Source: Dethiobacter sp.
Lineage (GTDB): Bacteria > Bacillota > Dethiobacteria > DTU022 > UBA8154
Direction: 5' to 3'
Length of the DNA: 64,000 nucleotides
Assembly (NCBI GenBank): GCA_020725665.1
Contig: DYEO01000024.1
Coordinates: 17,408 to 81,407, forward strand
Made by a program: the position numbers and the translations under genes. The notes under the pieces were generated by a model. It did not search any database, was not told the DNA's origin, and worked only from the letters and a program-made list of their open reading frames with translations. Numbering within the stretch: position 1 is the first letter of the stretch; each line of letters starts with the position of its first letter. Below, one piece after another: positions 915-40,854 of this stretch.

Positions 915-927
915 GGAGGGGAAGAGT

Positions 928-1839: not shown

Positions 1840-1874
1840 TAAATGATAAATACAATGAAAACAGGTGAATAAAG

Positions 1875-2645: not shown

Positions 2646-2726
2646 CATAGATATATCAAATTATGATAGCGGAACCTTATTGCTTTACTATTAAAAGCAC
2701 GATTGCCAGAGATATGGTGATGTTAT

Positions 2727-3182: not shown

Positions 3183-3446
3183 TATATTCATTATAAATAC
3201 CAAGCGAAAATCGTTTGGTGTTTTATTTTTGCCTTTTTTAAGGCTGCAGCCATGTTCTCTATCTTTATTAATGAAGGGTGAGGCTGCTCTTTATCTATTT
3301 TCTCCTATGGACTTCCGCTGCTTCTTCGTTTATTGTGTGTGCTGAGGTGATTAGGATGGCAGTTGTACAGGATACTTGTGGGAGGCTTGCCATAAAAATT
3401 CAGGCAGGTCTTTTTTATTTGTTTTTCGAGGAGAGGAGATGATGCA

Positions 3447-12189: not shown

Positions 12190-13965
12190 ATGCCCAGGAT
12201 CATATTCAAATGCCGGTACTTGAAAAATGCACCCAAAGCACACCTGGTAAATCTGGTAGAATATGTTGCTACTCGTGAAGGTGTTGAAAAAATTGATGAC
12301 AGTTCCAGAACTCTTCCTGCGACAAAAAAACAGCAGCAGCTGATTTCTGAAATCCTGAAAATACTGCCGGATACTGCTGACCTATTCGAGTACGAGGACT
12401 ATCTGAAAAATCCGACAAGCGAAAATGCATCGGAGTTTATTTCTATTGCTCTTGAAAACAATCTCGATCTGATCGGCAAAAAGAAAAACTTTGTAGACTA
12501 CATCGCCAATCGTCCGAGAGTTGAAAAGTTCGGCAGCCACGGACTCTTTACGGATGAAGGTGTACCTGTTGTACTATCAAAAGTTGCTGATGAAGTATCA
12601 AACCATTCCGGAAATGTGTGGACAAATATTGTATCCCTCAGGCGCGAAGATGCGTCAAGGCTGGGATATGACAATGCAAAGTCGTGGCAGGATTTGATCC
12701 GGGCACAGCGGAACGTTATCGCGGAAAACATGAAAATCGCTCCGGAAAATTTGCGATGGTATGCTGCTTTTCACAATGAGAGCCATCACCCGCATATCCA
12801 CCTGATTGCTTACTCCATCAATCCCAAAGAAGCCTATGTCACAAAGCAAGGGATAGAAAACATGCGGGGAAGTCTTGCGCGGGAAATCTTCCGCCAGGAC
12901 TTGATGCAGATTTATGAAAAGCAGACGGAACGACGCAATTCCCTGAATAGACAGAGTCGTGAGGCCATGCAGGACATCATTGCTCAAATTCGTTCAGGGA
13001 TATGTGAAAATAAAAATATAGAAGAATTGATTGCCCGCCTTGCTGAAAAGCTCAAGCATACTTCCGGCAAGAAACAATACGGTTATTTAAAAGCTTCCCT
13101 CAAGGTGCTCGTTAATCAGATTGTTGATGAGCTTGCAAAGGATGAAAGAGTGGCAAAATTATACGATAGTTGGTACGAAATGCGCAATGAAGTTTTAAGT
13201 ACGTATGCTGACAAGCTGCCGCCGCCTCTTCCATTGTCGCAGCAAAAAGAATTCAAAAGCATTAAAAATATGGTGATTGCTGAAGCGTTAAATATCGGCA
13301 GTCACCATTTCACTTTTGGGCCGGACGAGGAACAGGATATATCAATAAAAGGTGACATTGATATTGCTGCTGGTATCACATGTTTTGAAGAATCTGCAAA
13401 GCTCGGAAATGTCAACGCACAGTATATGCTCGGCAGGATTTATCTTGAATCGGACAGCGAGCATGAAAATGTAGAAAAGGCATTGCAGTGGCTGGGGAAA
13501 GCTGCGGACAACGGGAATGCTCTCGCACAGTATGCAATGGGGAAGCTGTACCTTACAGGAAACCATCTAGAGAAAGATGCCGTAAAGGCTGTGGAACTGT
13601 TCACCAAATCTGCAGTACAAGGCAATCAGCATGCGCAATATGCCCTCGGCAAACTGCATCTTTTGGGGCATGATGTCAGGCAGGATAAGGAAACAGCGGT
13701 GCATTGGCTGTCGGCAGCTGAAGCACAGGGAAATATCTATGCAAAGTATTTGTTGGAACGCATGGATTCCTTCAAAGACCCATCAATACTCCTTGCAGCA
13801 ACACGCTTGATGCATCACTTGGGCAACATCTTCAGAGAGAAGTATCAGAAAGCTTTTGGCAATCCTCTCATCCAGGTTGACCGCAAGCTCCACAAAAAAC
13901 TCATGGAGAAAAAACTGGCGCAAGGTCACGCATATAACGACCATGCGCCGCATCAAAGCTATTAG
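12190..13965 (+). CDS. MOBP-family relaxase/mobilization nuclease with C-terminal Sel1-like repeats
   Basis: Histidine triad HNESHHPHIHL typical of MOBP relaxases. The C-terminal 200 aa contain repeated AQY.LG.LY..G motifs (Sel1/TPR-like). Confidence 0.8.
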   Translation: MPRIIFKCRYLKNAPKAHLVNLVEYVATREGVEKIDDSSRTLPATKKQQQLISEILKILPDTADLFEYEDYLKNPTSENASEFISIALENNLDLIGKKKNFVDYIANRPRVEKFGSHGLFTDEGVPVVLSKVADEVSNHSGNVWTNIVSLRREDASRLGYDNAKSWQDLIRAQRNVIAENMKIAPENLRWYAAFHNESHHPHIHLIAYSINPKEAYVTKQGIENMRGSLAREIFRQDLMQIYEKQTERRNSLNRQSREAMQDIIAQIRSGICENKNIEELIARLAEKLKHTSGKKQYGYLKASLKVLVNQIVDELAKDERVAKLYDSWYEMRNEVLSTYADKLPPPLPLSQQKEFKSIKNMVIAEALNIGSHHFTFGPDEEQDISIKGDIDIAAGITCFEESAKLGNVNAQYMLGRIYLESDSEHENVEKALQWLGKAADNGNALAQYAMGKLYLTGNHLEKDAVKAVELFTKSAVQGNQHAQYALGKLHLLGHDVRQDKETAVHWLSAAEAQGNIYAKYLLERMDSFKDPSILLAATRLMHHLGNIFREKYQKAFGNPLIQVDRKLHKKLMEKKLAQGHAYNDHAPHQSY

Positions 13966-15593: not shown

Positions 15594-15685
15594 CAATATT
15601 ATAACTGCATATTTGAAGAAAGCCATGTGCGAATGAAAAACCATTGGTGCATGGCTTTCTCAATTTTGCAAGAAGGAGGAAACCA

Positions 15686-17524
15686 ATGCAAGCATCACAG
15701 GTGGTTACTTTAATCATAGCTGCTGCAACTATGTTTGGAGTCATCGGTTTTATCGTTCTCTTGGCTCATTACTATACCTTAAATGGCATCAAGGCCAGGA
15801 CTGTAGGTGACGGCCAGCATGGCACGGCAAGGTTCGCAACGAAGAATGAAATCAAGAAGACCTATGCTCATGTACTCTATGAGCCGGAACGGTGGCGCAA
15901 GGGTATCAACCTGCCCAAGGTGCAGGGTCTGGTTGTGGGATGCAAAACGGCTCCAGGATCGGTCACCGCTCTTGTAGACCAGGGGGATGTGCATGCATTG
16001 ATGATCGGTGCAGCAGGTGTCGGCAAGACCGCAAATTTCCTTTATCCCAATCTGGAATATGCTTGTGCTTCCGGGATGAGCTTTATTACCACCGACACCA
16101 AGGGCGACCTTTACAGGAATTACGGATGCATCGCCAAGGACTACTATGGCTACGATGTGTCCGTCATTGACCTGAGAAACCCCACCCGCAGCGATGGCAA
16201 CAATATGCTGCACCTTGTGAACAAATATATGGATGAATACCTTGCCAATCCCGATAATCTCTCAGCAAAAGCCAGGGCGGAGAAATATGCAAAGATCATT
16301 GCCAAAACCATCGTCAACTCCGGGGGACTGGATGCAGGTTCCTACGGCCAGAATGCATTTTTCTACGATGCAGCCGAAGGCTTGCTGACCGCTGTCATTT
16401 TATTGGTGGCGGAATACTGTCCAAACGAAAAACGCCATATCATATCGGTCTTTAAGCTCATACAGGACTTGCTGGCTCCCTCTGGCGTAAAAGGCAAAAA
16501 TCAGTTTCAACTGCTTATTGAAAAGCTTCCGTCGGAGCATAAGGCAAGATGGTTCGCAGGAGCAGCATTAAACACTGCGGAGCAGGCGATGCAAAGCGTC
16601 CTGTCGACAGCCCTTTCCCGGTTGAATGCATTCCTGGACTCAGAACTGGAGCAGATACTCTGTTTTGACACCGCCATCGATGCAGAGCGTTTTTGCAAAA
16701 GAAAGTCTGCCATCTTCCTTGTCATGCCGGAAGAAGACAATACAAAATATTTTCTAATTTCTTTAATTGTCCAGCAGCTCTACCGGGAGATACTGTCGGT
16801 AGCCGATGAGCAAGGAGGAAGGCTTCAAAACCGTGTCATGATGTACCTGGATGAGATCGGCACTATACCAAAAATTGAAAGCGCAGAGATGATGTTTTCC
16901 GCTTCCCGTTCCCGCCGCGTTTCCATCGTAGCCATCATACAGAGCTTTGCGCAGCTTGAAAAGAACTACGGCAAGGAAGGAGCCGCCATCATCATCGACA
17001 ACTGCCAGGACACCATTTTTGGAGGCTTTGCACCAAACTCGGAATCAGCAGAGATACTCTCCAGAAGCCTTGGCAATAAGACGGTTTTATCAGGTTCGGT
17101 TACCCGGGGGAAGCATGATCCGTCCCAATCCTTGCAAATGATCCAGCGTCCCCTGATGACTCCCGACGAATTGAAGACCCTGCCCAAAGGCAGCTTCATT
17201 GTCGCAAAGACCGGCGCCTGTCCTATGAAAACCAGTTTAAAGCTGTTCATTGAATGGGGTATCCGGTTTGAAAAGGTGTATGAGCTGCAGGAAAAATCCG
17301 CCCGCAAGGTTGCCTATGCTGACAAAAAAGAACTTGAAGAGGAAATCGTCAAACGGCACATATCATATGAGGATATAGAAGAACAGGAACCATACTCCAC
17401 ATCAGCTCAAGGCGGCATGTCCCTTGCACCTGCTGAAGAGATTCAGGGGAAAGCATTGAAGTCCAGACTGCAAGCAAAGATAAAAGCACAGCAGCAAATG
17501 GAGCCGCCGCTGCGTACAGATTAG
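15686..17524 (+). CDS. Type IV secretion coupling protein (VirD4/TraG/TcpA family)
   Basis: N-terminal TM helix and Walker A GAAGVGKTANFLYPN, with T4CP length. RBS AAGGAGGAAA lies upstream of ATG 15686 (the ORF track begins at TTG 15644). Confidence 0.8.
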   Translation: MQASQVVTLIIAAATMFGVIGFIVLLAHYYTLNGIKARTVGDGQHGTARFATKNEIKKTYAHVLYEPERWRKGINLPKVQGLVVGCKTAPGSVTALVDQGDVHALMIGAAGVGKTANFLYPNLEYACASGMSFITTDTKGDLYRNYGCIAKDYYGYDVSVIDLRNPTRSDGNNMLHLVNKYMDEYLANPDNLSAKARAEKYAKIIAKTIVNSGGLDAGSYGQNAFFYDAAEGLLTAVILLVAEYCPNEKRHIISVFKLIQDLLAPSGVKGKNQFQLLIEKLPSEHKARWFAGAALNTAEQAMQSVLSTALSRLNAFLDSELEQILCFDTAIDAERFCKRKSAIFLVMPEEDNTKYFLISLIVQQLYREILSVADEQGGRLQNRVMMYLDEIGTIPKIESAEMMFSASRSRRVSIVAIIQSFAQLEKNYGKEGAAIIIDNCQDTIFGGFAPNSESAEILSRSLGNKTVLSGSVTRGKHDPSQSLQMIQRPLMTPDELKTLPKGSFIVAKTGACPMKTSLKLFIEWGIRFEKVYELQEKSARKVAYADKKELEEEIVKRHISYEDIEEQEPYSTSAQGGMSLAPAEEIQGKALKSRLQAKIKAQQQMEPPLRTD

Positions 17525-17534
17525 GAGGTGCCTG

Positions 17535-17801
17535 ATGGGCTATTTTGAATCGCTTTATGCATCAGAGCTTCCCCATAGGGCTGTAGCTGTCTACATGTAC
17601 CTTCGTGACAGGGCGGACAGGGACGGCAAATGCTATCCGGCGATCGGTACCATCGCCGAAGAACTGAAGTTGTCACGGAGCACCGTAAAAAGAGCCATCG
17701 CAGACCTTGAAAAGAACGGTTATCTTCGCAAGGAGGAGCGGTGGCGTGAAAACGGGGGCAAGAGCAGCAACATGTATTTTTTGAAATCAGGGATGGGGTA
17801 A
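17535..17801 (+). CDS. Winged-HTH DNA-binding protein (replication initiator/DnaD-like small protein of ICEs)
   Basis: 88 aa with a helix-turn-helix-like segment GTIAEELKLSRSTVKRAIADLEKNGYL. Confidence 0.45.
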   Translation: MGYFESLYASELPHRAVAVYMYLRDRADRDGKCYPAIGTIAEELKLSRSTVKRAIADLEKNGYLRKEERWRENGGKSSNMYFLKSGMG

Positions 17802-17957
17802 CTCTGAAAAACTTTACTTTTACACCAAGGGGGCAGTCTGTTTATTTGGTGAACTGTGGTACGGTTCACCGTGAGCTATGCAGTGAACTGCCCACTCTAA
17901 GAAATATTCAACATCAGACAAAGAAACAAAATAGTTTTATTGATAATAGCATGAAAG

Positions 17958-18212
17958 GTGGAAGATGAGATGAATTTAGAAAAATCAAGGAATGCGGAAT
18001 ATAAAAAGTGTGCAGCTTTATTGTCTCTGCTGGTTGGATTGGATGCTGATACAGAAGAAAGGGTTTGTGGATGTTTTCAAAACATGGGAATAGATGACTT
18101 TTTTCTTCATCTTGAATCACTTGAACTTGACTTATCCCAGGAGACTTCTGAGAAGCTGAAAAGCTTAAAAGCTATTATTGAGATATTTGGTGAGGAAAGG
18201 GGGCAGGCATAA
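17958..18212 (+). CDS. Hypothetical protein
   Basis: 84 aa ORF upstream of radC with no recognised motif. Confidence 0.25.
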   Translation: MEDEMNLEKSRNAEYKKCAALLSLLVGLDADTEERVCGCFQNMGIDDFFLHLESLELDLSQETSEKLKSLKAIIEIFGEERGQA

Positions 18213-18213
18213 C

Positions 18214-18918
18214 ATGAAGAAAAATCTGCATCATACCGAAAGCTTCTTAAAAGGGCTGACAACTTTAACAGGACTGCCATATAAAAAGGTTCGGCAGTAT
18301 GCAAAAGAAAACAACCCCTTTAATATATTAGAACACCCTCATATTATGGAACCAAATGAAAAACAGCTTGAAAAGATAGGGTTGCTCAATGAGTTCATTG
18401 CCTCTTATAACCTCTTGAAAATCTATGAAAGTGAGAAGAAGATCACGCTCAATTCATCAACCGTATCAGGACAGTATTTTTTGGCTCTTTTAGGTGGAAT
18501 GAAGGATAAAGAGAGGTTCATGGTTGCCTTTCTGGATAATGGCAATAACCTGATTGAAACAAAGACCATGTCTGAAGGGAGTGTTGGACAAGCAGTTGTT
18601 TATCCCAGAGAGGTATTGAAATATGCCATTGCCTGTGATTGCAGGGCAATAATCTTAGCCCATAATCATCCTGGCGGCTCCACAAATTTTTCTCCGGAAG
18701 ATAGGGCATTGACACAGAGATTTGTTGATATTTTTCATCCTCTTGAAATTAAGGTTTTAGACCATATCGTTGTGGGTGGCACACGCTATTCTTCCATGGC
18801 GGAAAACGGAGAAATTCCTAATCAGTGTAACAGTAAAGCAAATTATGAAGTGATTGCATTAGGCGAAGCGGCAGTAGAAGAAAACCAGGATAGTTTTCAA
18901 TATACTCATTCATTTTAG
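18214..18918 (+). CDS. radC: RadC-like JAB/MPN domain protein
   Basis: JAMM motif ILAHNHPGGSTNFSPED and N-terminal HhH-like region. RBS AAGGGGG lies upstream of ATG 18214. Confidence 0.85.
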   Translation: MKKNLHHTESFLKGLTTLTGLPYKKVRQYAKENNPFNILEHPHIMEPNEKQLEKIGLLNEFIASYNLLKIYESEKKITLNSSTVSGQYFLALLGGMKDKERFMVAFLDNGNNLIETKTMSEGSVGQAVVYPREVLKYAIACDCRAIILAHNHPGGSTNFSPEDRALTQRFVDIFHPLEIKVLDHIVVGGTRYSSMAENGEIPNQCNSKANYEVIALGEAAVEENQDSFQYTHSF

Positions 18919-19176
18919 GCCGAAGAGAAGGGGAAAAACGATTGCAGCTAGTTCAGTATATCTATTTTGAGTTCATAAAGTCTTGCTATGAAAGGCTTTA
19001 TGAGCTTATGGGCATTGTTATAGTTAGATATATTCCATTGATGGAGAGAACCAATTGAAAATTATCTTTAATTATGAAGGGAATACTTGCCATTATTCGT
19101 AGTTTCGAATATAATATATTTTGTATGATTATAACTTTTAAGAGATATGTCAATGGGATATATCAGTTAAAACAGA

Positions 19177-20262
19177 ATGCAAATACCTTGCTGTAAGTCA
19201 AATCAGAAAGGCTTGCGATTAGGTGGGGGGCTTTCGGTAGAAATGTCAAAGGGTAAGATGGAGAAGCCATTAAGGACGATGAATAGATATATGGAACAAA
19301 TGGATAGAATCAGTAGGTTGACAGGAATAGCATCAAGGCTTAATATAGCAACCATGTTTGAGACTCCTATTAGTCGGTTGCTACAACAGCAAGACTATAT
19401 TGCCAATCTTTTTAAAAGCACAGAATTTACTTCTGCATTTTCATATGCAGAGAAAATTGAAAAGCTTGTATTGCCTAATGCTGCGGTTTTTTCTGAAGTA
19501 CAAAGAGCTTTAGATATTGTCAATACGCCTGCAATCAGAGAGGCAATTCTTTATGCAAATAGGATTGAAGGTATTATGCCTAAGCGTTTAGGCAGTATGT
19601 TTGAGAATTCTATAGCAATCCTTGAGAGGATTAATTTTAATAACAGCAGGCTGTCGTTCATTATAGATTCATTAAATACTTATCAAAACCTTTTCCAAAA
19701 CATAATAAATACCACTGCTTATAACAATTTGTTAGGGAACTTATTTCCTGAAGACGAGTATTCTCAGATATTCAACAATTTTGATAGTGAAATTGACGAG
19801 GTATCTTTAACCTCTATCGAAGAGGAAGAGCTTGCAAATGATATTACAGAGATTTATTCTTCTCCAAACTGGCAGCAACGGCTAAATGCAGCAATAATAA
19901 AATGGCAGGAAAAAAATCCTATAGTTATGCGGGTTTTACAAGCAATTGTTACGATAATTACCATAATAAGTGCAATAGTGACGATAGCTGGTTTTGTGCA
20001 TCAGGCTACCATCGTTTCAGATAAAGCAGCAATAAGAAAAGAACCTTCTAAAGCAGCTCCAATTGTATATACCGTTACAAAAAATGAAATCGTCACGATA
20101 ATTAGCGAAGAACGGTACTGGTACCAGGTCGAATATGTACCTCTAAAATTTGAGGATGAAGATAAAAAAACTGTTTACAGGGGATATATTGCTAAACGGA
20201 CAACAGTGAAAACCATTGAAACGAAGTCTACCAGCGCTGCTGAAGATGATGGTTTGGAATAA
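19177..20262 (+). CDS. Hypothetical membrane protein with C-terminal SH3b-like domain
   Basis: Low-GC region. TM helix VLQAIVTIITIISAIVTIAGFV, and a C-terminal segment IRKEPSKAAPIVYTVTKNEIVTI...YWYQVEY...GYI resembling a bacterial SH3. The true start may be an internal Met (MSKGKM at about 19243). Confidence 0.35.
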   Translation: MQIPCCKSNQKGLRLGGGLSVEMSKGKMEKPLRTMNRYMEQMDRISRLTGIASRLNIATMFETPISRLLQQQDYIANLFKSTEFTSAFSYAEKIEKLVLPNAAVFSEVQRALDIVNTPAIREAILYANRIEGIMPKRLGSMFENSIAILERINFNNSRLSFIIDSLNTYQNLFQNIINTTAYNNLLGNLFPEDEYSQIFNNFDSEIDEVSLTSIEEEELANDITEIYSSPNWQQRLNAAIIKWQEKNPIVMRVLQAIVTIITIISAIVTIAGFVHQATIVSDKAAIRKEPSKAAPIVYTVTKNEIVTIISEERYWYQVEYVPLKFEDEDKKTVYRGYIAKRTTVKTIETKSTSAAEDDGLE

Positions 20263-20302
20263 GTAGAAAAGTTTTGGATGGCAAGAAAGAAGGGGTGTTT
20301 AT

Positions 20303-20797
20303 TTGAAGCAAGTGAATTCTTTAATAAGATGCATACTGGATTTTTATAATCTCCAAAGAATGGAAAATCCAGTAGTTCTTGAACGTATGAAAGAGGGCAA
20401 TAGCGAGGAATGGGTAATGGACAGGTTGGAGCGGGCCATCTTTAATGATTGTGATAAAGAGGCTAAAGCTACTCATTCACGTTATGCCATATGGGGAGAA
20501 GATATCCGCAGTTTAACCTTGAAGGCAAGGAATGAGATGATACAAGGAAACTGTGAGCGTGCGGGGAAATTACTTAATATTGTGATCAACAGTATGGGTG
20601 CATTTATAGACGCACAAGTCATGCTCAGCAATAAGCCGGAAAATACAAGTTTTATAGAACCTGCTGAAATATTGGAATCTTATATAGAAGCATTGAAATC
20701 AAATAATTTTAAAGAAAGTGCCGAAATAGACAGTGTAGTTAAAAGGATGGAAGAGCTGATTAAAGATAAACCATTATTTTATGGGATTGAGGATTAA
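20303..20797 (+). CDS. Hypothetical protein
   Basis: 164 aa in a low-GC region with no motif recognised. Likely co-transcribed with 19177..20262. Confidence 0.3.
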   Translation: MKQVNSLIRCILDFYNLQRMENPVVLERMKEGNSEEWVMDRLERAIFNDCDKEAKATHSRYAIWGEDIRSLTLKARNEMIQGNCERAGKLLNIVINSMGAFIDAQVMLSNKPENTSFIEPAEILESYIEALKSNNFKESAEIDSVVKRMEELIKDKPLFYGIED

Positions 20798-20843
20798 GAA
20801 ATTGCTGGAGCCTAGAAAACTACATTTCGATGAGGGATGAGAA

Positions 20844-21068
20844 ATGGAATATATTACTGCGAAAGAAGCTGCTGAAAAATGGGGCATATCCCAACGGCGG
20901 GTGCAGGTTCTGTGTGAACAGGGCAGAGTTGATGGAGCCAAGCGCCTTGGCTGGGTATGGGCAATTCCTAAAGATGCTCCAAAACCAGCAGATGCAAGGT
21001 TTAAAAGAGAAGAAACCAGGACTAATGAAAAGAAGATAGATGCTAGGACAGGAGGGGTTAGGCAATGA
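20844..21068 (+). CDS. HTH DNA-binding protein (excisionase/MerR-like HTH_17) translationally coupled to Type III mod
   Basis: MEYITAKEAAEKWGISQRRVQVLCEQGRVDGA is a helix-turn-helix. Its stop overlaps the mod start (ATGA). A paralog lies at 36885..37055. Confidence 0.6.
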   Translation: MEYITAKEAAEKWGISQRRVQVLCEQGRVDGAKRLGWVWAIPKDAPKPADARFKREETRTNEKKIDARTGGVRQ

Positions 21069-24000
21069 GCGAAAAACTGCAACGCTTTACCAAACTTTTA
21101 AGGGACATGTTTGAGTTGGAGAAATCAGATCTTGACTTTGGCATATACCGCATCATGAATATCCGAAAAAATGAGATCAATAACTTCATTGAAAATACTC
21201 TTGCCAGTGAAGTTAATTCCATACTATCGAAATATGCTACCGACAACAGCCAGGTAAGAAAGCGTATTGAAGAAATTGAGAAGCAGTGTGAAAGCGTAGG
21301 GGTTAAGGTAGAGGACAGCAAGCTAAGGGAAGAATATGCCGAATATAAGGCGTTGCTTGCCTCCGGTACAGGAGTTGCCGAGCTGGAAAGTGATGTTTAT
21401 TCAGCTTTATATAACTTTTTCAGCCGTTACTATGATGAGGGAGATTTCATCAGCAAACGCCGCTACAAAGAAGGTGTTTATGCTATTCCCTATGAGGGGG
21501 AAGAAGTCAAACTTTACTGGGCCAACCATGACCAATACTATATCAAAACCAGTGAAAACTTCAGGGATTATTCCTTTAAGGTGGATGTACATGGAGAAAA
21601 GTATACGATTCATTTTAAGCTGGTTGACGCCAATACCGAGCAAAATAACAACAAAGAAAGTGATGACAAAAAGCGCGAATTTATTCTGCTGGATGAAAAC
21701 TTCCTGGAAGCGGAGGGTAATGAGCTTACAATAAAATTTGAATATCGTGTTCCTGCAAGTGAGCAGGATAGCGTAAACAAGCTGAAAGATAATTCTAAAT
21801 TAAATAAATCCGCCGTTGATAAAATTAAAGGCGCCGTTTCAGAAAATGCCGACTTAAAGCGCTTTGTCTGGGCCATAAACATGCCTGCTCCAACAGATAA
21901 AAATAAGACCCGCACAATTCTGGAAAAGCACCTGGAAACCTATGTTGCCAAGAACACCTTCGATTATTTTATTCACAAAGATTTGCGCGGTTTCTTGAAC
22001 AGGGAACTGGATTTTTACATAAAAGCCGAGATAATGCACCTGGACGACCTGGACACCGACAATGAAGTGAAAGTAAATGTCTACCTGGCCAAGGTGAAGG
22101 CCATTAAAAAGGTAGGCCGCACCATTATTGACTTTTTGGCGCAAATAGAGGACTTTCAGAAAAAGCTGTGGCTCAAGAAAAAGTTTGTGGTTGAAACAAA
22201 CTGGTGTATCACCCTTGATAAGATTGATGAGAGCTTCTATCCCGAAATAGCTGCAAATGATGCTCAACGGCAGGAATGGGTGGAACTGTATGCCATCGAT
22301 GAGATTGCCGGGGACTTGATGACAGAGGCTTATTCCAATCCGCTGACCGTAGATTTTTTAAAACAGAATAAAAACCTTGTGCTGGATACAAAGCATTTTA
22401 CAACAGAATTCAAGGAGAGGCTGGTTGCGAGCATTGACAATTTAGATGAGGAGACAAACGGCCTCTTAATTCACAGTGAAAATTTTCAGGCATTGAATTT
22501 GCTGCAGGAAAAGTATCGGGAAAAGATTTCTGGAATATATATTGATCCTCCTTATAATACAGATGCAACAGAAATTGTTTATAAAAATGGCTACAAAGAT
22601 AGTTCTTGGTGTTCTTTAATTAATGACAGGATGGCTATTGCAAAAAAACTTATGCATAAGGATGCTTGTGCTTGTACAACTATTGATGAATGCGAAGTCA
22701 ACAATCTTGCCTTTATAATTGGCCAAGTTATGGGAGGGTATATTCTTAGACCGGTAATTATTGAGTATAATCATCGCGGGCGGGTGAAAAGTAACTTTGC
22801 AATTACCCATGAATATGCTTTATGGGCTATTCCTCAAGGCAGAGATTTAATTACTCGCAAAAGAGAAACATCAGATGATATTAGAAGAAATCTAAGAAGA
22901 ACCGGTACAGATTCCACAAGACAAGCGTCACCTAAACAGTTTTACGGGATTGAAGTTGATAATGATACATTGGCTATTGTGGGTGTAACTGAACCTTTGC
23001 CTCTTGGTACTCCTATTCCAGAACATAATAACCCTAAAACAACTATGGTATGGCCGATTGATGAGCAAGGAGTTGAAAGAAGATGGTATTATGGAAGCGA
23101 AAGAGTTCTTATTGAAGCAACTGAGGGGACTGTTTGGGCTAAACGTATAAAAGGAGAAATACAGATACATTATCATCAAGATGGAAAACCCAAAATGAGA
23201 AAATCTGTTTGGGTAGGGAAATTATTAGATGCTAGTACATATGGTTCTGAATTACTGAATGATATTTTTGGTATGGCTAAAGCAGACTTTTCGTTTCCCA
23301 AAAGTATTTATGCTGTTAAAGAATGTTTGGAAGCAATGTCATATAATCCTAAAGCGGTATTTCTTGATTACTTCGCCGGCTCCGGTACAACAGGTCATGC
23401 AGTAATAAACCTCAACCGCGAAGACGGAGGCAATCGTAAATATATCCTTGTAGAAATGGGCAATTATTTCAACACAGTTACCAAGCCGAGGATCAAAAAG
23501 GTTATCTATGCTAAAGACTGGAAAGACGGCAAGCCACAGAACAGAAATACCGGTGTTTCACAGATTTTTAAATACATCCGTCTGGAAAGCTACGAGGATA
23601 CATTGAATAATATCGAGCTTAGGCGCACGCCTGAGCAGGAAAAGCAGCTGAGGATGGACACAAACTTCTTTAATGAGTATCTTATATCATATATGCTGGA
23701 TATTGAAAGCAGGGGCAGCCTCTTAAGCCTTGACCGATTTAAGGAGCCTTTTGCCTATAAAATGAAAATTGCCGAGAACAGCGAAACAAAAGAAACAATC
23801 ATTGATCTAGTGGAAACCTTTAATTACCTCCTTGGCCTTGCTGTTAAGAGACAAAAAGCTGCTGCCCGCTTTAATGCCGTCCCTGATGAGAAGGGTGGAT
23901 ATGAAAATGCAGTAATGCTCACAGAAGACAAGGAAGGAAAGTATATCTTTAAAACAGTGGAAGGCATTATGCCCAATGGGGATAAAGCTCTTGTCATCTG

Positions 24001-24208
24001 GCGCAGCCTTACCGATGATCTGGCAGCTGACAACGCAGCTTTAGACAGCTACTTCATTAAATATTGCGCTGGAGCTAAAGGTAAGGACTTTGATGTTATC
24101 TATGTCAATGGAGACAACAATTTAGAAAACCTCCGCAAGGACAACCAGCAGTGGAAGGTTCATTTAATCGAGCTTGAATTTAAGAAGAGAATGTTCGAGG
24201 AGGTGTGA
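21065..24208 (+). CDS. mod: Type III restriction-modification Mod (N6-adenine/N4-cytosine beta-class DNA methyltransferase) with about 480 aa N-terminal extension
   Basis: Motif IV IYIDPPYNT (about aa 495) precedes motif I FLDYFAGSGTTGHAV (about aa 790), the beta-class order typical of Type III Mod. It overlaps the res start. Confidence 0.8.
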   Translation: MSEKLQRFTKLLRDMFELEKSDLDFGIYRIMNIRKNEINNFIENTLASEVNSILSKYATDNSQVRKRIEEIEKQCESVGVKVEDSKLREEYAEYKALLASGTGVAELESDVYSALYNFFSRYYDEGDFISKRRYKEGVYAIPYEGEEVKLYWANHDQYYIKTSENFRDYSFKVDVHGEKYTIHFKLVDANTEQNNNKESDDKKREFILLDENFLEAEGNELTIKFEYRVPASEQDSVNKLKDNSKLNKSAVDKIKGAVSENADLKRFVWAINMPAPTDKNKTRTILEKHLETYVAKNTFDYFIHKDLRGFLNRELDFYIKAEIMHLDDLDTDNEVKVNVYLAKVKAIKKVGRTIIDFLAQIEDFQKKLWLKKKFVVETNWCITLDKIDESFYPEIAANDAQRQEWVELYAIDEIAGDLMTEAYSNPLTVDFLKQNKNLVLDTKHFTTEFKERLVASIDNLDEETNGLLIHSENFQALNLLQEKYREKISGIYIDPPYNTDATEIVYKNGYKDSSWCSLINDRMAIAKKLMHKDACACTTIDECEVNNLAFIIGQVMGGYILRPVIIEYNHRGRVKSNFAITHEYALWAIPQGRDLITRKRETSDDIRRNLRRTGTDSTRQASPKQFYGIEVDNDTLAIVGVTEPLPLGTPIPEHNNPKTTMVWPIDEQGVERRWYYGSERVLIEATEGTVWAKRIKGEIQIHYHQDGKPKMRKSVWVGKLLDASTYGSELLNDIFGMAKADFSFPKSIYAVKECLEAMSYNPKAVFLDYFAGSGTTGHAVINLNREDGGNRKYILVEMGNYFNTVTKPRIKKVIYAKDWKDGKPQNRNTGVSQIFKYIRLESYEDTLNNIELRRTPEQEKQLRMDTNFFNEYLISYMLDIESRGSLLSLDRFKEPFAYKMKIAENSETKETIIDLVETFNYLLGLAVKRQKAAARFNAVPDEKGGYENAVMLTEDKEGKYIFKTVEGIMPNGDKALVIWRSLTDDLAADNAALDSYFIKYCAGAKGKDFDVIYVNGDNNLENLRKDNQQWKVHLIELEFKKRMFEEV

Positions 24209-27200
24209 TGATGGGAGCAAAGAAGACCAAGAAAGCAAATAAAGCCATCAATCTCAATGATTGCCTGGTGCTCAATAAGTACTTCCTTTCCCTCTTTGGC
24301 AAAAGAGATTTCAGGGAACTGGCGGAAGACATGAGGTCTGCTGATCTGGAAGGGTATAATGAAGAGAACACCTCCTATTTCCATGAATTTATAGTACGCA
24401 AGTATGTTAAGCTGGGCTTTTTAAATAAGGACAAGCTGAAGGAATATGATGAAAACATCTTCCGTTATGTCCAGCATATCGGTGAGGGCCGGGGCGGGCT
24501 TACCCTAAAATATTTCCAGTATCTTGCTTTGCTTTTTACCGAAATGTATCTCGACAGGTATTTCCTGGATAGGGAAAACTTTGTTGCCGACTTAAATAAT
24601 TTCCTGCATGAATTCAATGCTGAAAGCGATGGTGAAACAATTTCGGATTATACACCGGACAGCTTGAACAAGCTAGCCTTTATGTGCGCTACAGGTAGCG
24701 GCAAGACGTTAATTATGCATGCTAATATCCTGCAATTCCAACATTACTTTAAGAGAGCGCAGGAATATAACAAAAGCTTGGCGCTAAATAAAATCATTCT
24801 TCTTACGCCCAATGAAGGTTTATCGCACCAGCACATTGAGGAAATGAAGCTTTCCGGCATCCGCTGCCGCCTCTTTGAAAAGGATACCCTACAGGAAAAA
24901 GACGGAGTGCTGGTCATAGATATCAACAAGCTGGAAGAACAGGGTAAGGTGAAGACAGTTTCTGTGGACAGTTTCGAGCAGAACAACCTTGTCCTGGTTG
25001 ACGAAGGGCACAAAGGGCTCTCGGGGGATGTGTGGTATGATTTTCGCAGCCGGTTGTCGGAAAATGGTTTTTCCTTCGAGTACTCAGCGACTTTTAAGCA
25101 GGCGATCAAGGAGGAAAAAACAAAGTCAGAGGCGGAGGCTCTTGCTCATCAGTACGGCAAGGCTATTATCTTTGACTATTCTTATAAGTACTTCTATAAC
25201 GACGGATATGGCAAGGAATACCGCATTTACAACCTGAAAGAGAGTCTTTCCAAGGAGCAGCAAGAGCTGTATTTAACGGGTTGCTTGCTCAGTTTTTATC
25301 AGCAAATGAAAATTTATCAGAGCGATAGAGGGGCCTTTGTCCCCTTCAATATTGAAAAACCGCTCTTAGTATTTGTTGGCAACAGTGTCAATAAAACCGT
25401 CAGCAAGGACGAGTTAACCGACGTGCAGGAAGTCCTGGCCTTTATTAACGGCTTTACAGCCAATAGAGAAAAGGCCGTAAGCCGAATCAAAATGTTGCTG
25501 GATGACAATACCGGGCTCCTTGATGAAAGAGGGCAGGAGCTGTTTTACGGCGATTTTTCCTATCTGCAAAATCTGTTTAAGCGAGATGCCGGCTCTGTTT
25601 ATGACGATGTGTTAAAAATCGTTTTTGAGGCAACTTCCACAGGCAGGCTGCACTTAGTAAATCTAAAGCAGTTGGGTGGAGAAATCGGTTTACGGGTCGG
25701 CAGCGACAATGAGTTTTTCGGGGTCATCAACGTTGGTGCTGGCGGCGACAGCGAGCTGATTAAGAATATTGAAAAAGGAAAGACCGGGATTGTTACCGAT
25801 GAAAACCAGTTTGAGAACGAGTCTCTGTTTAAAAAAATAAATGATAAAAATTCCAAGATTAATATACTTATTGGCTCTAAAAAGTTTACAGAAGGGTGGA
25901 ACAGCTGGCGGGTTTCCACCATGGGGCTGATTAACTTTGCCAAAGGCGAAGGCTCTCAGGCCATTCAGCTTTTTGGCAGGGGGGTAAGGCTTAAAGGTTA
26001 CGGAAACTGTCTCAAGCGCAGTTCCAAACTGGACTACCCTGTTGAAGTGCCAAGGTATATTAACAAAATAGAAACCTTAACTATATTTGGCGTAAAAGCC
26101 GATTATATGGCACAATTCAAAGAATATCTTGAAAAGGAAGATATGGATCTCAATGACTCCATCAGAGAGTTCAGGCTCCCTGTAGTAAGCCGTTTTCATG
26201 ATGTGAAGGATAAACTGAAGGTGATTAAGGTCAAGGACGGTATCAATTTCAAAAAACAATCGAAACGGCTAATCCTTACTACTCCTTCAGACGGCTTTAT
26301 GGACAACCTGGTCAAAAATAAAATCAAGATTGATTATAATGCTACCGTCCAAAGCCTTACCTCTACCAGGAGTGAAGATGTAAAATATCAAAAGGACGAG
26401 GCTGTATTGGAGCCATATCATATCGCATTTTTAGATGTGGATAAGCTTTATGCTGAGCTGCTGCAATACAAAAACCAAAAGGCTTATTACAATATCAGCA
26501 TCGAAAAGTCATTATTGCCGGAAATACTTAAGACTAAAGGCTGGTACACTTTGTTTGTCCCCAAAGCGCTGATGGAAATTGACAGTTTTGATAAAATCGG
26601 CAGAATCAATGATATATGTGTGATGCTTCTGAAAAACTATCTGGACAGGTTTTATAAATATCATAAGGCAGAGTGGGAAGCGCCGCACCTGGTTTACGGA
26701 GACTTAAAATCCAGTGATAAGAATTTTATCGACGAGTATAATATTACTCTTTTTAACAAAGAGAAATTCGACGAATTTGCAGAGCTGATTGAGGGAATCA
26801 GAGAGGCTTTGGAAAAAAACAGGCGTTTGGACAAGTACGAGGATAAGCATTTGAATTTCCGCTACTTTGATTTTTACAGCCACCTTTACACTCCCCTAAT
26901 CTCTATAGATAAAGGAATCCGTATCGAGGTTTCGCCGGTAAGCCTCAACAGCGATGAAAAGTTGTTTATTGATAGGCTGAAGAAATATTGCGATGATAAT
27001 CCATCTGCTTTTATCGAAAAGAGGCTGTACCTGCTCCGCAATAAGAGCAAAGCTGGTATTGGCTTTTTTGAAGCAGGAAATTTTTACCCGGACTTTATTA
27101 TGTGGATTGCCGAAGATGACAAGCAGTATATTACCTTTATTGACCCAAAAGGCATTATGATGCTGGAAAAGAATATTAATAATCCTAAAATCCAATTTTA

Positions 27201-27414
27201 TAAAACCATCAAGGAAAAGGAAGCCCAGTTGCAGCCATCCTGTACAGAAAAACAGATAATTTTGAATTCCTTCATCATTTCCGGCACACCGGCTGCAGAT
27301 GCCAGCGCTCATTTTGGAGTTAGGAGACCTGAGTTTGAAAGCAGAAATGTGCTTTTTCTGGAGGATGATGATTGTATAGAGAAGATGATGAGCAAGATAT
27401 GTCTGGAATGCTAA
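24205..27414 (+). CDS. res: Type III restriction enzyme Res subunit (SF2 helicase plus PD-(D/E)xK nuclease)
   Basis: Walker A CATGSGKTL, DEAH-like VLVDEGHKG, SAT motif, and LFGRGVR motif VI. The C-terminal YPDF...TFIDPKG is a PD..DxK endonuclease motif. Confidence 0.8.
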   Translation: MMMGAKKTKKANKAINLNDCLVLNKYFLSLFGKRDFRELAEDMRSADLEGYNEENTSYFHEFIVRKYVKLGFLNKDKLKEYDENIFRYVQHIGEGRGGLTLKYFQYLALLFTEMYLDRYFLDRENFVADLNNFLHEFNAESDGETISDYTPDSLNKLAFMCATGSGKTLIMHANILQFQHYFKRAQEYNKSLALNKIILLTPNEGLSHQHIEEMKLSGIRCRLFEKDTLQEKDGVLVIDINKLEEQGKVKTVSVDSFEQNNLVLVDEGHKGLSGDVWYDFRSRLSENGFSFEYSATFKQAIKEEKTKSEAEALAHQYGKAIIFDYSYKYFYNDGYGKEYRIYNLKESLSKEQQELYLTGCLLSFYQQMKIYQSDRGAFVPFNIEKPLLVFVGNSVNKTVSKDELTDVQEVLAFINGFTANREKAVSRIKMLLDDNTGLLDERGQELFYGDFSYLQNLFKRDAGSVYDDVLKIVFEATSTGRLHLVNLKQLGGEIGLRVGSDNEFFGVINVGAGGDSELIKNIEKGKTGIVTDENQFENESLFKKINDKNSKINILIGSKKFTEGWNSWRVSTMGLINFAKGEGSQAIQLFGRGVRLKGYGNCLKRSSKLDYPVEVPRYINKIETLTIFGVKADYMAQFKEYLEKEDMDLNDSIREFRLPVVSRFHDVKDKLKVIKVKDGINFKKQSKRLILTTPSDGFMDNLVKNKIKIDYNATVQSLTSTRSEDVKYQKDEAVLEPYHIAFLDVDKLYAELLQYKNQKAYYNISIEKSLLPEILKTKGWYTLFVPKALMEIDSFDKIGRINDICVMLLKNYLDRFYKYHKAEWEAPHLVYGDLKSSDKNFIDEYNITLFNKEKFDEFAELIEGIREALEKNRRLDKYEDKHLNFRYFDFYSHLYTPLISIDKGIRIEVSPVSLNSDEKLFIDRLKKYCDDNPSAFIEKRLYLLRNKSKAGIGFFEAGNFYPDFIMWIAEDDKQYITFIDPKGIMMLEKNINNPKIQFYKTIKEKEAQLQPSCTEKQIILNSFIISGTPAADASAHFGVRRPEFESRNVLFLEDDDCIEKMMSKICLEC

Positions 27415-27436: not shown

Positions 27437-28084
27437 ATGGGGCTAAATGAGCTAAACGAGGTTTGTAATGTGGAGCGTGATGAGTTTATCGTAGCAAAGA
27501 GGTGCGGAAAAGTGGCTGTTAATTATAAAAAGTGCCCTAAATGCGGGTCTAAGAATTCGGTTAAAATTGTATATGGCATGCCAAGTTTTAAGCTTTTCCA
27601 GGAAGGCGAAGCCGGAAAGGTAAAATTGGGTGGTTGTTGCATTATAGAGGGCAGTCCTGAATACCACTGCAAGGATTGTAACAATGAGTGGAACCGGGAG
27701 CAGGTGCTTGACATCGCATACGGTCAGATCAAAGGGCTTAAAGCATCAGTGGGTGGTTACTTCGGTGGTTATTATCGTGTAACTATTGATTTGACAAATC
27801 TTAAAACTACATGGCTGTTCAACGAGGGCGGTTCTGAAGAAGCCAGTACAAGATCCATTCGAACAAAAACAGCAGAAGAATTCATTAAGTGTTTAAAAGA
27901 GATTAACCTGCTGAATTGGAAAGGTAAGTACATAGAACCCGGAGTCTGTGATGGGACCCAATGGAGCATTGAAATAATTACTGACGAGAGAACCGTCAGA
28001 AAATATGGTAGCAATAAGTTTCCGGAAGAATGGAAACAGTTTTGCAAAATTATTAAAAAAATAACCGGAAAAGAATTCAGGTGA
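27437..28084 (+). CDS. Hypothetical zinc-ribbon protein
   Basis: CPKCG ... HCKDCN four-cysteine zinc ribbon near the N-terminus; the remainder is unassigned. Starts 20 nt after res and overlaps the next gene. Confidence 0.35.
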   Translation: MGLNELNEVCNVERDEFIVAKRCGKVAVNYKKCPKCGSKNSVKIVYGMPSFKLFQEGEAGKVKLGGCCIIEGSPEYHCKDCNNEWNREQVLDIAYGQIKGLKASVGGYFGGYYRVTIDLTNLKTTWLFNEGGSEEASTRSIRTKTAEEFIKCLKEINLLNWKGKYIEPGVCDGTQWSIEIITDERTVRKYGSNKFPEEWKQFCKIIKKITGKEFR

Positions 28085-30329: not shown

Positions 30330-30445
30330 CGGTAATATTTTGGCTATAATGTTCACTTATTATACAATAAGAGAACAAATTTATTGACAAAAATATTGTT
30401 CACATATTATAATACAAGAGAACAAAAAATATGTCAATAATTTTG
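30330..30445. promoter_or_regulatory. Divergent promoter/operator region with two palindromic operator copies
   Basis: Two copies of TGTTCAC-N(about 15, AT-rich with TATAAT)-GAGAACAAA (TGTTC...GAACA inverted repeat), each overlapping a -10-like TATAAT. Located between immR and the divergent 30463 gene. Confidence 0.5.
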
Positions 30446-30462: not shown

Positions 30463-31008
30463 ATGAGTTCTGAAAAAATGGCGTTAGCTGTGTTGAAACG
30501 AGGATTAGCTTCCATGCACATTGATGAAGAGCGGGTATATCATAAAACAAAATTGTTGCTGAAAATATACCGGGATGTGGTTTGGTGTATTGAAGACAGG
30601 ATATGCGAGATTGAAGCAGAGTATTATGCCATGGGAGGCAATCGTCTGGCTGAAGCCTTGGATTACCTGGATGATTATGACCCCAATATCAATAAGAAAG
30701 ACCTTGAAGAAAAGCTGTGCTCATTATTGAAAAGCAAGTGGCTTATTGAAATTGTGGACAAGGCATTGTTAAAAATAAAGAATTATCCTGATTATGGGGA
30801 CTTGTATTTCAATATCCTTTACAAGCAGTACATTGTAAAATACAGGTATTCGGAAAAGGAAATTATCGAATCTCTCAATTGTGAGAGGACAACCTTTTAT
30901 AAAAGAAAAAAGGAAGCTATAAATTTAATGGGCCTTGCCATATGGGGATATGTGATACCTGCTCTAAGGGATATATGGCAGACGGAATGTGAACTAAATA
31001 CGAACTGA
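30463..31008 (+). CDS. Hypothetical protein (possible sigma-factor region-4-like HTH)
   Basis: C-terminal ERTTFYKRKKEAINLMG resembles sigma region 4. Transcribed divergently from immR. Confidence 0.3.
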   Translation: MSSEKMALAVLKRGLASMHIDEERVYHKTKLLLKIYRDVVWCIEDRICEIEAEYYAMGGNRLAEALDYLDDYDPNINKKDLEEKLCSLLKSKWLIEIVDKALLKIKNYPDYGDLYFNILYKQYIVKYRYSEKEIIESLNCERTTFYKRKKEAINLMGLAIWGYVIPALRDIWQTECELNTN

Positions 31009-31112
31009 TAAAGGACAAAATACCTACATAACAAGTACTGAATACGAACTGCCAGGGTGTTACGATAATTATGATGGGTAGCTGCATACTTTAAAGCCCT
31101 CGATTTCAGGCT

Positions 31113-31140
31113 TACACGGCCATGAATCGATGGCTTTTTT
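31113..31140 (+). terminator. Rho-independent terminator
   Basis: GCCATGAATCGATGGC hairpin followed by TTTTTTTT. Confidence 0.4.
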
Positions 31141-31179
31141 TTATGCCCCAAAACTTATCCAAAATTGCACATAGGTACA

Positions 31180-31216
31180 AAAAAGGGTCGCACGAAAAAT
31201 CGTGCGGCCCTTTTTT
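31180..31216. terminator. Bidirectional terminator hairpin
   Basis: AAAAAAGGGTCGCACGaaaaatCGTGCGGCCCTTTTTT. Confidence 0.45.
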
Positions 31217-31329
31217 GCTGCCGGAAAGGGGACATCCGTGAAGCGTTTGTTTTGGTACTACATCCGGTATCCTTGATTTTCTCTGTTTTGCTAAGGCCTG
31301 CAAACAAAGCAAAACGGAGGGAATGAAAG

Positions 31330-31734
31330 ATGAAAGAATACAAAATAAGAGTGAAAAATGAAATTGTTACTGTAAGCAAGGAAATATATACTGCCTATTA
31401 CAAGATGAGAAGACGTGAAAGGTACATAGAGGAAATCAGCATAAAGAACAATCTTTCTTATGACCAGCTAGTCGAGCTGGACTATCCTATCGAGCAGAAA
31501 ATGTGTGATCCGCAACTTCTTGTTGAAGACGTTATTATTGAAAAAATCATGCTTGAGAAATTGATGCTGGCGCTTGAAGAATTGACAGATTATGAGCGGT
31601 TAATAATTAACGAACTGTTCTTTAATGGCAAAAGCGAAAGAGAGCTTGCAGATTCTATGAAGCTGCCAAGAACAACTTTGCAGTCTCGCAAAAACAGCAT
31701 TATCAGCAAACTTAAAAAAATCATTGAAAAATAA
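31330..31734 (+). CDS. Sigma-70 family RNA polymerase sigma factor (small ICE-type; region 4 present)
   Basis: C-terminal DYERLIINELFFNGKSERELADSMKLPRTTLQSRKNSIISKLKK is a region 4 HTH. Confidence 0.6.
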   Translation: MKEYKIRVKNEIVTVSKEIYTAYYKMRRRERYIEEISIKNNLSYDQLVELDYPIEQKMCDPQLLVEDVIIEKIMLEKLMLALEELTDYERLIINELFFNGKSERELADSMKLPRTTLQSRKNSIISKLKKIIEK

Positions 31735-32460: not shown

Positions 32461-32543
32461 AAACACTTGATATGGCTGGATTTGTGTGGTACTGTGTGTT
32501 GCTGATAAAGCATCATGTACTGAAAAGTGAAAGGAGGAAGCGT

Positions 32544-34145: not shown

Positions 34146-35126
34146 ATGGCGCAAAGACATATGCCTTTTGGCTATAAAATCATAGACGGAGCTGTAACCA
34201 TCGAACCGGATAAAGCAGACCTGGTCAGAAAAATGTTCAATGATTTTATATCGGGCATATCCTTGAAGCAGATGGCAAAGGACCTGACAGAAATGAAGGT
34301 TCCCAATGCCAACGGAAAGCCCTCCTGGAATCACGGCTCCATCGGAAAAATTTTGAGCAACTGCAAATACGTCGGAAGTGATTTCTATCCTGCCATTATC
34401 CCGGAGGAAGTATTCAATGCCGCCAACAGGCTCAGAGAAGAAAAGAACACCCGGCTTGGCAGAAATGTCAATTACTATGCCAACGGCATCGCCAGCACTT
34501 ATCCCTTCAGCGGCAGATTGATATGCGGGGAATGCGGAAGTGTTTTCAAAAGGTACACCGAACACCATGACAAAAATAAAAAATGCAACTGGAAATGCAA
34601 ACGGTATATCGTTGACAACAGGGTATGCTGCAAAAGCGGCGTGGTTGATGACAAGCAGCTTGAAGCTGCCTTTATACAGATTATCAACCGGGTGATGGAG
34701 AACCCTGAAATGATAGAAAAGCGTCCAGCAGTTAATGCTGTGACTGAGAGTGTTGAATTAAGAAAGATAAAATTGCAAATATCCAACGGATTCGATCAAA
34801 ACGGCTTGGAACCGTCGGAAATGGCACAGCTGCTATTCAAAAGAGCTGCAGAACAATATCGAATCTCTCAAATAGATGACTTTGAATACAAAACCAAGAA
34901 ATTGAAAGCGGTGCTTGAGAACTGTAAGCCCATTAAAGCATTTGATGAGGCTTTATTCAAAGCGACCATCAAAAGCATAACAGTGGAAATCACCGGGCAG
35001 CTCCGGTTTGAACTGATCAATGGAGTGATGCTAAGCACCTCATATACACTACGGAGAAAAGGAGGAAAGGCCCATGGCGATGGGACAAAGAACAGTATCG
35101 GTAATCCCTGCAAATCCGATTTATGA
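34146..35126 (+). CDS. Recombinase-domain protein lacking the N-terminal catalytic resolvase domain
   Basis: Aligns with the recombinase/zinc-ribbon/coiled-coil portion of large serine recombinases (LICGECGSVFKRY zinc ribbon) but has no YCRVS catalytic region. The TAAATG stop/start overlaps the upstream recombinase. Confidence 0.6.
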   Translation: MAQRHMPFGYKIIDGAVTIEPDKADLVRKMFNDFISGISLKQMAKDLTEMKVPNANGKPSWNHGSIGKILSNCKYVGSDFYPAIIPEEVFNAANRLREEKNTRLGRNVNYYANGIASTYPFSGRLICGECGSVFKRYTEHHDKNKKCNWKCKRYIVDNRVCCKSGVVDDKQLEAAFIQIINRVMENPEMIEKRPAVNAVTESVELRKIKLQISNGFDQNGLEPSEMAQLLFKRAAEQYRISQIDDFEYKTKKLKAVLENCKPIKAFDEALFKATIKSITVEITGQLRFELINGVMLSTSYTLRRKGGKAHGDGTKNSIGNPCKSDL

Positions 35127-40821: not shown

Positions 40822-40854
40822 TAAAGAGTTTTAAATTATTGCGGGGGGATAGAA

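Follow-up and report, generated by a model that had tools for sequence, protein, structure and literature searches.

A predicted membrane-anchored SH3b protein and an independent small helical protein encoded at the front of a Type III restriction–modification locus

The window analysed here is a 64,000-nucleotide stretch of a Dethiobacter sp. contig (DYEO01000024.1, positions 17,408 to 81,407), and it carries a Firmicute integrative conjugative element. In this element the RadC gene is followed, in order, by two genes named here A and B, by HTH_17 and by the Mod and Res genes of a Type III restriction–modification (R-M) system. An earlier note on this DNA had described A and B as a low-GC two-gene module between the conjugation backbone and the R-M system, a position it took to be typical of defence or abortive-infection cargo. 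Much of that description was confirmed: both open reading frames (ORFs) are real and lie on the + strand, the local GC content is low, the Type III R-M system adjoins them (743 bits for Mod and 624 bits for Res) and the coupling protein and RadC genes are upstream. The two-gene module itself did not survive comparison with related loci. A and B are new uncharacterised families within a familiar kind of locus, and in all four sequence-distinct lineages with genomic context an array led by A is followed directly by a DNA-methyltransferase-based defence system.

The ORF of A reaches upstream to 19177 (19177–20262, 361 amino acids (aa)), the length given in the earlier note. The true start is almost certainly the ATG at 19243, Met23 of the longer frame, because this methionine and a GGGGG/GGAGG ribosome-binding site are kept in every lineage and the 22-codon extension is not. 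The protein is laid out as a helical N-terminal domain (isoelectric point (pI) 4.86), an acidic juxtamembrane motif, a single transmembrane (TM) helix, an SH3b domain and a short acidic tail; no signal peptide was detected. The TM helix and SH3b domain had been noticed earlier, and the latter belongs to Pfam SH3_3 (PF08239; E 5.4e-9, 36.5 bits against a gathering cut-off of 27), a match also precomputed for the homologues. In all four diverged lineages the N-terminal flank of the TM helix carries a net charge of +2 to +3 and the C-terminal flank 0 to +1. The more positive N-terminal side predicts an N-in/C-out topology with the SH3b domain outside. A is presumably a bitopic, non-enzymatic membrane protein whose external SH3b domain binds peptidoglycan. 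Both A and B are under purifying selection, the ratio of nonsynonymous to synonymous substitution rates (dN/dS) being about 0.2–0.5, a range common to the two. The A of the window lacks seven residues (MDKLFPR) after residue 94 of the 361-aa frame (~19450), an in-frame 21-bp deletion; the stretch is kept by almost all other aligned members, as six or seven residues in three diverged lineages.

A is a near-orphan family of about five lineages. At 90% identity it forms 17 clusters in a set of 5.8 billion proteins, and the window protein is identical to one annotated in a Bacillota metagenome-assembled genome (MAG). Exhaustive phmmer/HMMER searches of 1.84 billion representatives with the N-terminal domain gave two further clusters and one weak truncated fragment (P0060), and a profile search for more relatives of this domain added none. 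Across four lineages the acidic juxtamembrane segment (EEEELANDI...NWQQRL...IKWQEKNP) is 54% invariant and the SH3b domain 48%, but the N-terminal domain only 19–30%. That the juxtamembrane segment and SH3b domain are the most conserved parts points to a function of A at the membrane interface and in the wall.

The earlier note had recognised no known defence or conjugation family, and the database searches agree. The SH3_3 domain was the sole significant Pfam match, the N-terminal domain of A and the whole of B matching nothing, and Pfam scans of every A family member at E up to 10 gave nothing consistent. A had no match in PADLOC-DB v2, and neither protein had a significant match in NCBIfam or PHROGs, any similarity to Mod or Res (Pfam, PADLOC) or a recognisable enzymatic or effector domain. 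No match to either was obtained by tblastn in 72,556 plasmids or in 50,697 phage genomes. The weak matches of A to sequences in the PDB (E 0.3–0.8) were to the Clostridium perfringens SH3_3 structures 2KYB, 2KT8 and 2KRS, and profile searches of PDB sequences gave nothing significant for A or B. Structure prediction, which the earlier note had proposed for both proteins, gave unusable AlphaFold2 models, with predicted local distance difference test scores (pLDDT) of 40.3 for A and 54.5 for B.

The TTG start of B was assigned because the full-length alignment with its homologues runs from this codon. As noted earlier, B is soluble: there is no TM segment (top 19-residue hydropathy 1.49), and the protein is mildly acidic (pI 4.95; 29 acidic and 22 basic residues). 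The B family consists of 42 clusters in Clostridia and is wider than, and separate from, the A family. Pfam scans at E up to 10 gave weak ARM/TPR-like matches in 15 of 22 members (best E 8.8e-5), and a Foldseek search of the PDB with the model of B gave nothing below E 0.5. In PADLOC, B had two insignificant matches (CARF7 and PDC-S63, E about 0.01–0.02), and no model was matched by more than one of the 22 family members. A relationship to the PADLOC candidate PDC-S63 was considered and rejected, as only one family member matched it. B is most likely a cytosolic, TPR-like protein-binding adaptor of integrative elements with no obligatory tie to A or to R-M.

Table 1. Features of the locus, with positions in the window
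Feature	Positions	Strand	Details
VirB4-like ATPase and M23 peptidase			conjugation genes of the element
MobL relaxase	12190–13965		conjugation gene
DUF3991/Toprim primase-like gene			conjugation region
VirD4-type coupling protein	15644–17524		upstream of A
HTH_36 gene			upstream of A
RadC/JAB protein	18178–18918		last gene before A
Palindromic terminator-like hairpin	18974–19002	+	CATAAAGTCTTG...AAGGCTTTATG; just past RadC, left edge of A-to-Res block
Sigma-70-type promoter-like site	19087–19115	+	TTGCCA-17-TATAAT, 11/12 positions; upstream of A
Gene A	19243–20262	+	339 aa
Predicted cytoplasmic helical N-domain of A	19243–19920	+	226 aa
Single TM helix of A	19921–20001	+	residues 249–275 of the 361-aa ORF; hydropathy peak 2.58
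SH3b (SH3_3) domain of A	20026–20199	+	residues 284–341; predicted extracytoplasmic
Gene B	20303–20797	+	164 aa, TTG start; soluble, predicted all-helical
HTH_17 small DNA-binding protein	20844–21068	+	stop overlaps Mod start
Type III Mod methyltransferase, long	21065–24208	+	1047 aa; PADLOC MTase_III 742.9 bits; Pfam N6_N4_Mtase
Type III Res helicase-nuclease	24205–27414	+	1069 aa; PADLOC REase_III 623.8 bits; Pfam ResIII

Gene orders in related loci (designated L001 to L038) showed that A and B are not a pair. The window order A-B-HTH-Mod-Res, where HTH is a helix-turn-helix gene, is found also in L021, L022 and L026–L029, and L033 has a complete array, A-B-C-D-HTH-Mod-Res, in which C is a protein of 136–151 aa with a weak DUF6438 match and D, of 154 aa, has a double zinc ribbon. 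Three other lineages have A but lack B: L001/L030 (A-C-D-HTH-BrxF-BrxC-PglXI), L003/L032 (A-C-D(truncated)-Phd-ParE-classical Type III Mod) and L002 (A-Mod-Res). Conversely, B occurs without A at more than ten loci (L006–L019, L023/24 and L034–38), in the orders DUF1413-p252-HI_0787_N-B-C-D (L011–L019, L023, L024), recombinases-135-244-lipoprotein-B-GIY-YIG-...-PRiA4 (L007, which is partial, and L036–L038) and B-280-579 (L006, L008, L010, L034). In Geosporobacter subterraneus (L020) a 409-bp deletion equivalent to window 20427–20835 removes codons 42–164 of B together with the B–HTH spacer, leaving A, HTH, Mod and Res intact. Neither the co-occurrence nor the joint loss or retention expected of an obligate two-gene system was therefore found. 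The gene orders and the L020 deletion indicate that the four genes A to D are independent of one another and have been shuffled and singly lost. In the window A-B is what is left of an array, A-B-C-D, that integrative elements of Clostridia carry.

Some further observations were made on these loci. The deletion in L020 (11081–11204) is in a cultured strain, G. subterraneus DSM 17957, which offers a natural ΔB background. The HI_0787_N protein that holds the slot of A in B-C-D arrays was compared with the N-terminal domain of A, and a relationship was rejected (hhalign probability 0.1%). The window protein p215 (27437–28084), with weak DUF6438 and zinc-ribbon matches, was considered as a fused homologue of C and D and was likewise rejected, only CxxC motifs being common to them. 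In small serine-recombinase elements (L037, 2476–3015; also L007, L036 and L038) B is preceded by a lipoprotein with the lipobox LAGC and a LysM-like C-terminus, with a 57-aa ORF between the two in L037 and L038. This lipoprotein is predicted to be a second kind of wall-binding envelope protein, placed in the slot that A holds in the window.

In the window the gap between A and B is 40 bp and that between B and HTH_17 is 46 bp, and the HTH_17/Mod and Mod/Res junctions are 4-bp overlaps. By consensus match, the promoter-like site upstream of A is kept in L026 and L028; a consensus-based scan found no convincing terminator between A and the end of Res at 27414. The hairpin at the left edge of this block is part of an element of ~70 nt overall, CATAAAGYCTTG-loop-CAAGGCTTTATG plus ~30 nt downstream, of which the window has two copies (18974–19002 and 45975–46003) against none expected by chance. 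The copy at 18974 has a predicted folding energy of -21 kcal/mol (z-score -6.1). Copies range from -21 to -31 kcal/mol, and the best consist of an A-run, the stem and a U-run; the element looks like a bidirectional terminator. Copies stand at the edges of defence blocks: one precedes A, one precedes the Type I R-M genes and, in compact relatives, one follows Res. In L026 (1804–1832 and 10432–10460) and L028 (167–195 and 8833–8861) they flank exactly the A-B-HTH-Mod-Res block. The palindrome might also serve as a site of recombination when cassettes are exchanged. In related elements, breakpoints of rearrangement lie at 18950–18961 and at 27404, the right edge of the conserved block. In L002 the stop of A overlaps the start of Mod by 8 nt and the ribosome-binding site of Mod lies inside A.

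The spacing, the promoter-like site, the hairpins and the breakpoints together suggest that A and B are the promoter-proximal genes of the R-M transcription unit, and we infer that they are co-transcribed with HTH_17, Mod and Res. Their position is better described in this way than as separate cargo between the backbone and the R-M system.

HTH_17 is probably the controller of the R-M system. A paralog at 36885–37055 (82% amino-acid identity; 73% DNA identity over 172 nt) lies directly before a Gabija-like gajA gene (start 37056), so that two defence systems of different kinds, 16 kb apart, are each led by a copy of this regulator-like gene. The HTH_17 gene before BrxF-BrxC-PglXI in L001 is unrelated to that of the window. 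Within Mod, the segment 22609–23361 gives no DNA-level alignment with any relative, although these are otherwise 92–97% identical. It is presumably the target-recognition region, and its divergence suggests specificity swapping.

The GC content of 19001–20000 is 34.1% against a window mean of 44.8%. By gene, A has 35.5% and B 36.6%, with 33.6% in the intergenic region upstream, and the conjugation genes have 44.6–50.9%. At third codon positions (GC3) A has 30.9%, the two genes together spanning 31–35% as against 47–60% in the conjugation genes. These values support the view of A and B as compositionally foreign cargo adjoining a Type III R-M system. The low-GC zone is, however, wider than had been noted: it runs from ~17958 to ~29200 and takes in the whole accessory region, including RadC, the R-M genes and p84, a small acidic protein encoded upstream of A.

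The defence system that follows A differs between lineages. Long-Mod Type III R-M genes follow it in the window lineage and in L002, where identity to the window proteins is 48% for A, 67% for Mod and 83% for Res. In L001/L030 the A array is followed by a bacteriophage exclusion (BREX) system of type 3 (BrxF; BrxC 1397 bits; PglXI 1233 bits), and in L003/L032 by a classical Type III Mod (653 bits) on a contig that ends before any Res gene. In the BREX-linked L030 a pair encoding an AAA ATPase and an S8 subtilase (865–4511), which we take to resemble the IetAS defence pair, lies upstream of A, and because of it A is there embedded between defence genes on both sides.

Because a methylation-based defence system directly follows A in each lineage for which context is available, A is tentatively proposed to be an envelope-anchored accessory of the defence cassette behind it, with the part of a sensor, regulator or tether. 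A and B would then be the first two cistrons of a unit continuing into HTH_17, Mod and Res and would form no self-contained system. A might report on the condition of the envelope, by sensing or signalling it, or might tether or regulate the cytoplasmic defence machinery, and would not be an autonomous effector; both genes would be individually dispensable leaders of a mobile R-M operon. A more specific form of this proposal, in which A, anchored in peptidoglycan and membrane, recruits or regulates Type III R-M and BREX at the envelope through its juxtamembrane segment and so couples the place or signal of foreign-DNA entry to restriction, is decidedly unlikely. The earlier guess of an association with defence holds in part for A and not for B, and nothing supports an autonomous role in abortive infection; no enzymatic or effector domain was recognised in either protein.

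Several observations weigh against a role of A as an accessory of defence. The three types of system found after it are mutually unrelated, and PADLOC definitions count each of them as complete without A. The long Mod/Res family is found on Priestia, Klebsiella and Hymenobacter plasmids with a helix-turn-helix gene and an SNF2 helicase upstream and without A or B, which argues that A is not a core R-M component. Only four lineages have context and two of them have the same R-M system, which leaves few independent events behind the association. A can be separated from the defence genes by B, C, D, a helix-turn-helix gene or a toxin–antitoxin pair, and B-C-D arrays elsewhere are followed by non-defence genes (ChrB_N, MFS, DUF1232). 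L002 and L003 keep the same left neighbours of A, DUF1659-DUF2922-YvrJ, and differ in the right-hand system; a constant left flank with a variable right flank is just as compatible with a gene beside a hotspot for cargo. Neither structure prediction (AlphaFold2 pLDDT 40 and 54.5) nor homology gave evidence of any activity, and the promoter and terminator assignments are consensus matches only. Two of the three left-hand neighbours belong to the SroA/SroB families of S. aureus, which are regulated by an extracytoplasmic function (ECF) sigma factor (bioRxiv 10.1101/2022.10.19.512975).

Alternatively, A to D may be hitchhiking backbone genes, that is, non-essential genes of the element (for maintenance, regulation or another purpose) that flank a cargo hotspot and have no functional tie to R-M. 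The mosaic array, every member of which can be lost, would be expected of such genes, as would the existence of the R-M family without A or B and the common left neighbours in L002 and L003. Moreover, B-C-D arrays adjoin trios of large serine recombinases; conserved non-defence genes come after them, and the variable cargo beyond is defensive in some cases only. In addition, PRiA4_ORF3 and zf_CopZ travel with B in both the window and L017 (81–86% identity). Hitchhiking does not readily explain why A overlaps the Mod start codon in L002, why terminator hairpins and rearrangement breakpoints mark the limits of the A-to-Res block, or why A adjoins a methyltransferase-based system in four of four lineages when the neighbours of B vary. 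On balance it seems somewhat unlikely.

With its SH3b domain predicted to lie outside the membrane, A could also act at the envelope in its own right, as a wall-binding protein that blocks incoming DNA (superinfection exclusion of phages or entry exclusion of related conjugative elements) and is carried alongside the R-M system. The LysM-like lipoprotein that fills the slot before B in other elements would be in keeping with this. Homology to surface-exclusion proteins, which the earlier note had named as grounds for giving up a novel defence function, was looked for in Pfam, NCBIfam and PHROGs, and neither A nor B showed any to known exclusion proteins. A also lies outside the genes of the type IV secretion system (T4SS), downstream of RadC, and no conjugation genes are in view near A in L002 and L003. 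A conserved cytoplasmic domain of 226 aa would, in addition, be unexpected in a simple surface blocker. Exclusion is an improbable function for A.

It is very unlikely that A and B are anti-defence or establishment genes, expressed early after transfer and helping the element to survive in a new host as plasmid leading-region genes do. They do lie downstream of the relaxase, primase-like, coupling protein and RadC genes, all on one common strand, B and p84 are both small acidic proteins, and islands mixing defence and anti-defence genes exist (PMC12629846). However, neither A nor B matches ArdA, KlcA, Ocr or other anti-restriction families (Pfam, NCBIfam, PHROGs), B is no more than mildly acidic, an inhibitor of cytoplasmic defences would hardly be expected to span the membrane and expose a domain outside, as A is predicted to do, and neither family is present in the plasmids and phage genomes searched. 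The weakest explanation, and a most improbable one, is the autonomous two-gene anti-phage or abortive-infection system of the earlier note: the region is rich in defence genes (Type III R-M downstream and Gabija-like, KAP NTPase and Type I R-M genes further on) and a membrane protein such as A could in principle act as an effector, but A and B co-occur nowhere outside the window lineage, A is retained in Geosporobacter where B is deleted, no significant PADLOC match was found for A, B or the B family, and neither protein has an effector or enzymatic domain.

The wider neighbourhood is that of a mobile element. After Res come PRiA4_ORF3, zf_CopZ and three large serine recombinases (32472–36708), and near-identical elements (92–98% DNA identity) are present in G. 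subterraneus DSM 17957 and in Clostridiaceae and Eubacteriaceae MAGs. Directly past the recombinases, 37056–52217 encodes a Gabija-like OLD/TOPRIM ATPase and UvrD helicase, a KAP NTPase, a QueC-like protein and a Type I R-M system. Two tandem 47-nt repeats at 30346–30439 lie between divergent ORFs and contain a perfect 12/12 promoter consensus on the + strand (30384–30413) and an 11/12 consensus on the - strand, with sigma-70 region-4-like and DUF1492-like genes nearby (30463–31734). This repeat region probably acts as the regulatory switch of the element. A second coupling-protein-like ORF, distant in sequence (62844–63890; 27% identity to the one at 15644–17524) and located at the window's right end, hints at another conjugative or mobilisable element. 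An Rfam scan of 17000–22000 gave no match.

Should A indeed work with the systems that follow it, R-M and BREX would share an envelope-anchored component, of which examples are rare, and A would give a handle on the cellular site and signal of their action. If it does not, the locus is a tidy example of small accessory genes shuffled at the front of Clostridial defence cassettes. In either case A and B do not belong in a catalogue of candidate two-gene defence systems.

Among known proteins, A can be compared with the Firmicute surface proteins and endolysins that have wall-binding SH3_3 domains. Its C-terminal 60 residues resemble these domains above the Pfam threshold, 2KYB, 2KT8 and 2KRS being weakly the nearest solved relatives. 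Such proteins are secreted enzymes or are exposed at the surface, and they have signal peptides and catalytic domains. A differs in having neither a signal peptide nor a catalytic domain, and in its internal TM anchor and large cytoplasmic domain without outside relatives. The exclusion lipoproteins and membrane proteins of Gram-positive phages and integrative conjugative elements (Ltp, Sie2009, YddJ) are small, lack a large cytoplasmic domain and are encoded in lysogeny or T4SS modules. Like them, A is envelope-anchored and borne on a mobile element and has a domain outside the membrane; unlike them it has a large cytoplasmic domain, and it shares no sequence similarity with them. The LysM-like lipoprotein found before B in other elements resembles the lipoproteins Ltp and YddJ.

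Regulators common to different defence systems are known in the BrxR/WYL-type proteins encoded upstream of BREX and R-M. The A family is similarly placed upstream of unrelated methylation-based systems (long-Mod Type III, classical Type III and BREX type 3), but A is membrane-bound and without a DNA-binding domain, and HTH_17 more plausibly fills the DNA-binding role. In architecture A resembles transmembrane regulators of the DdvA/DdvS, RsgI and RsiV types, which also have a cytoplasmic N-terminal domain, one TM helix and an extracytoplasmic sensor-type domain. DdvA, of the DdvA/DdvS pair of Myxococcus, is a single-pass transmembrane regulator that controls a defence island (PMC11506125), and A shares with transmembrane regulators of defence loci a position at the head of the defence genes. 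In contrast to the anti-sigma types, no anti-sigma domain was detected in any of five A N-terminal domain sequences scanned, no sigma gene adjoins A in the window, L001, L002 or L003 (the closest sigma-70 region-4-like ORF in the window is at 31330–31734), and there is no sign of regulated proteolysis or signalling. For the locus as a whole, the nearest comparison is with the Priestia, Klebsiella and Hymenobacter plasmid loci (helix-turn-helix gene, SNF2, long Mod and DEAD-box Res). These are likewise led by a small helix-turn-helix gene, and their Mod proteins are 37–44% identical to that of the window over 99% of the length; upstream of Mod they carry an SNF2-type helicase of about 980 aa, where the window has A and B.

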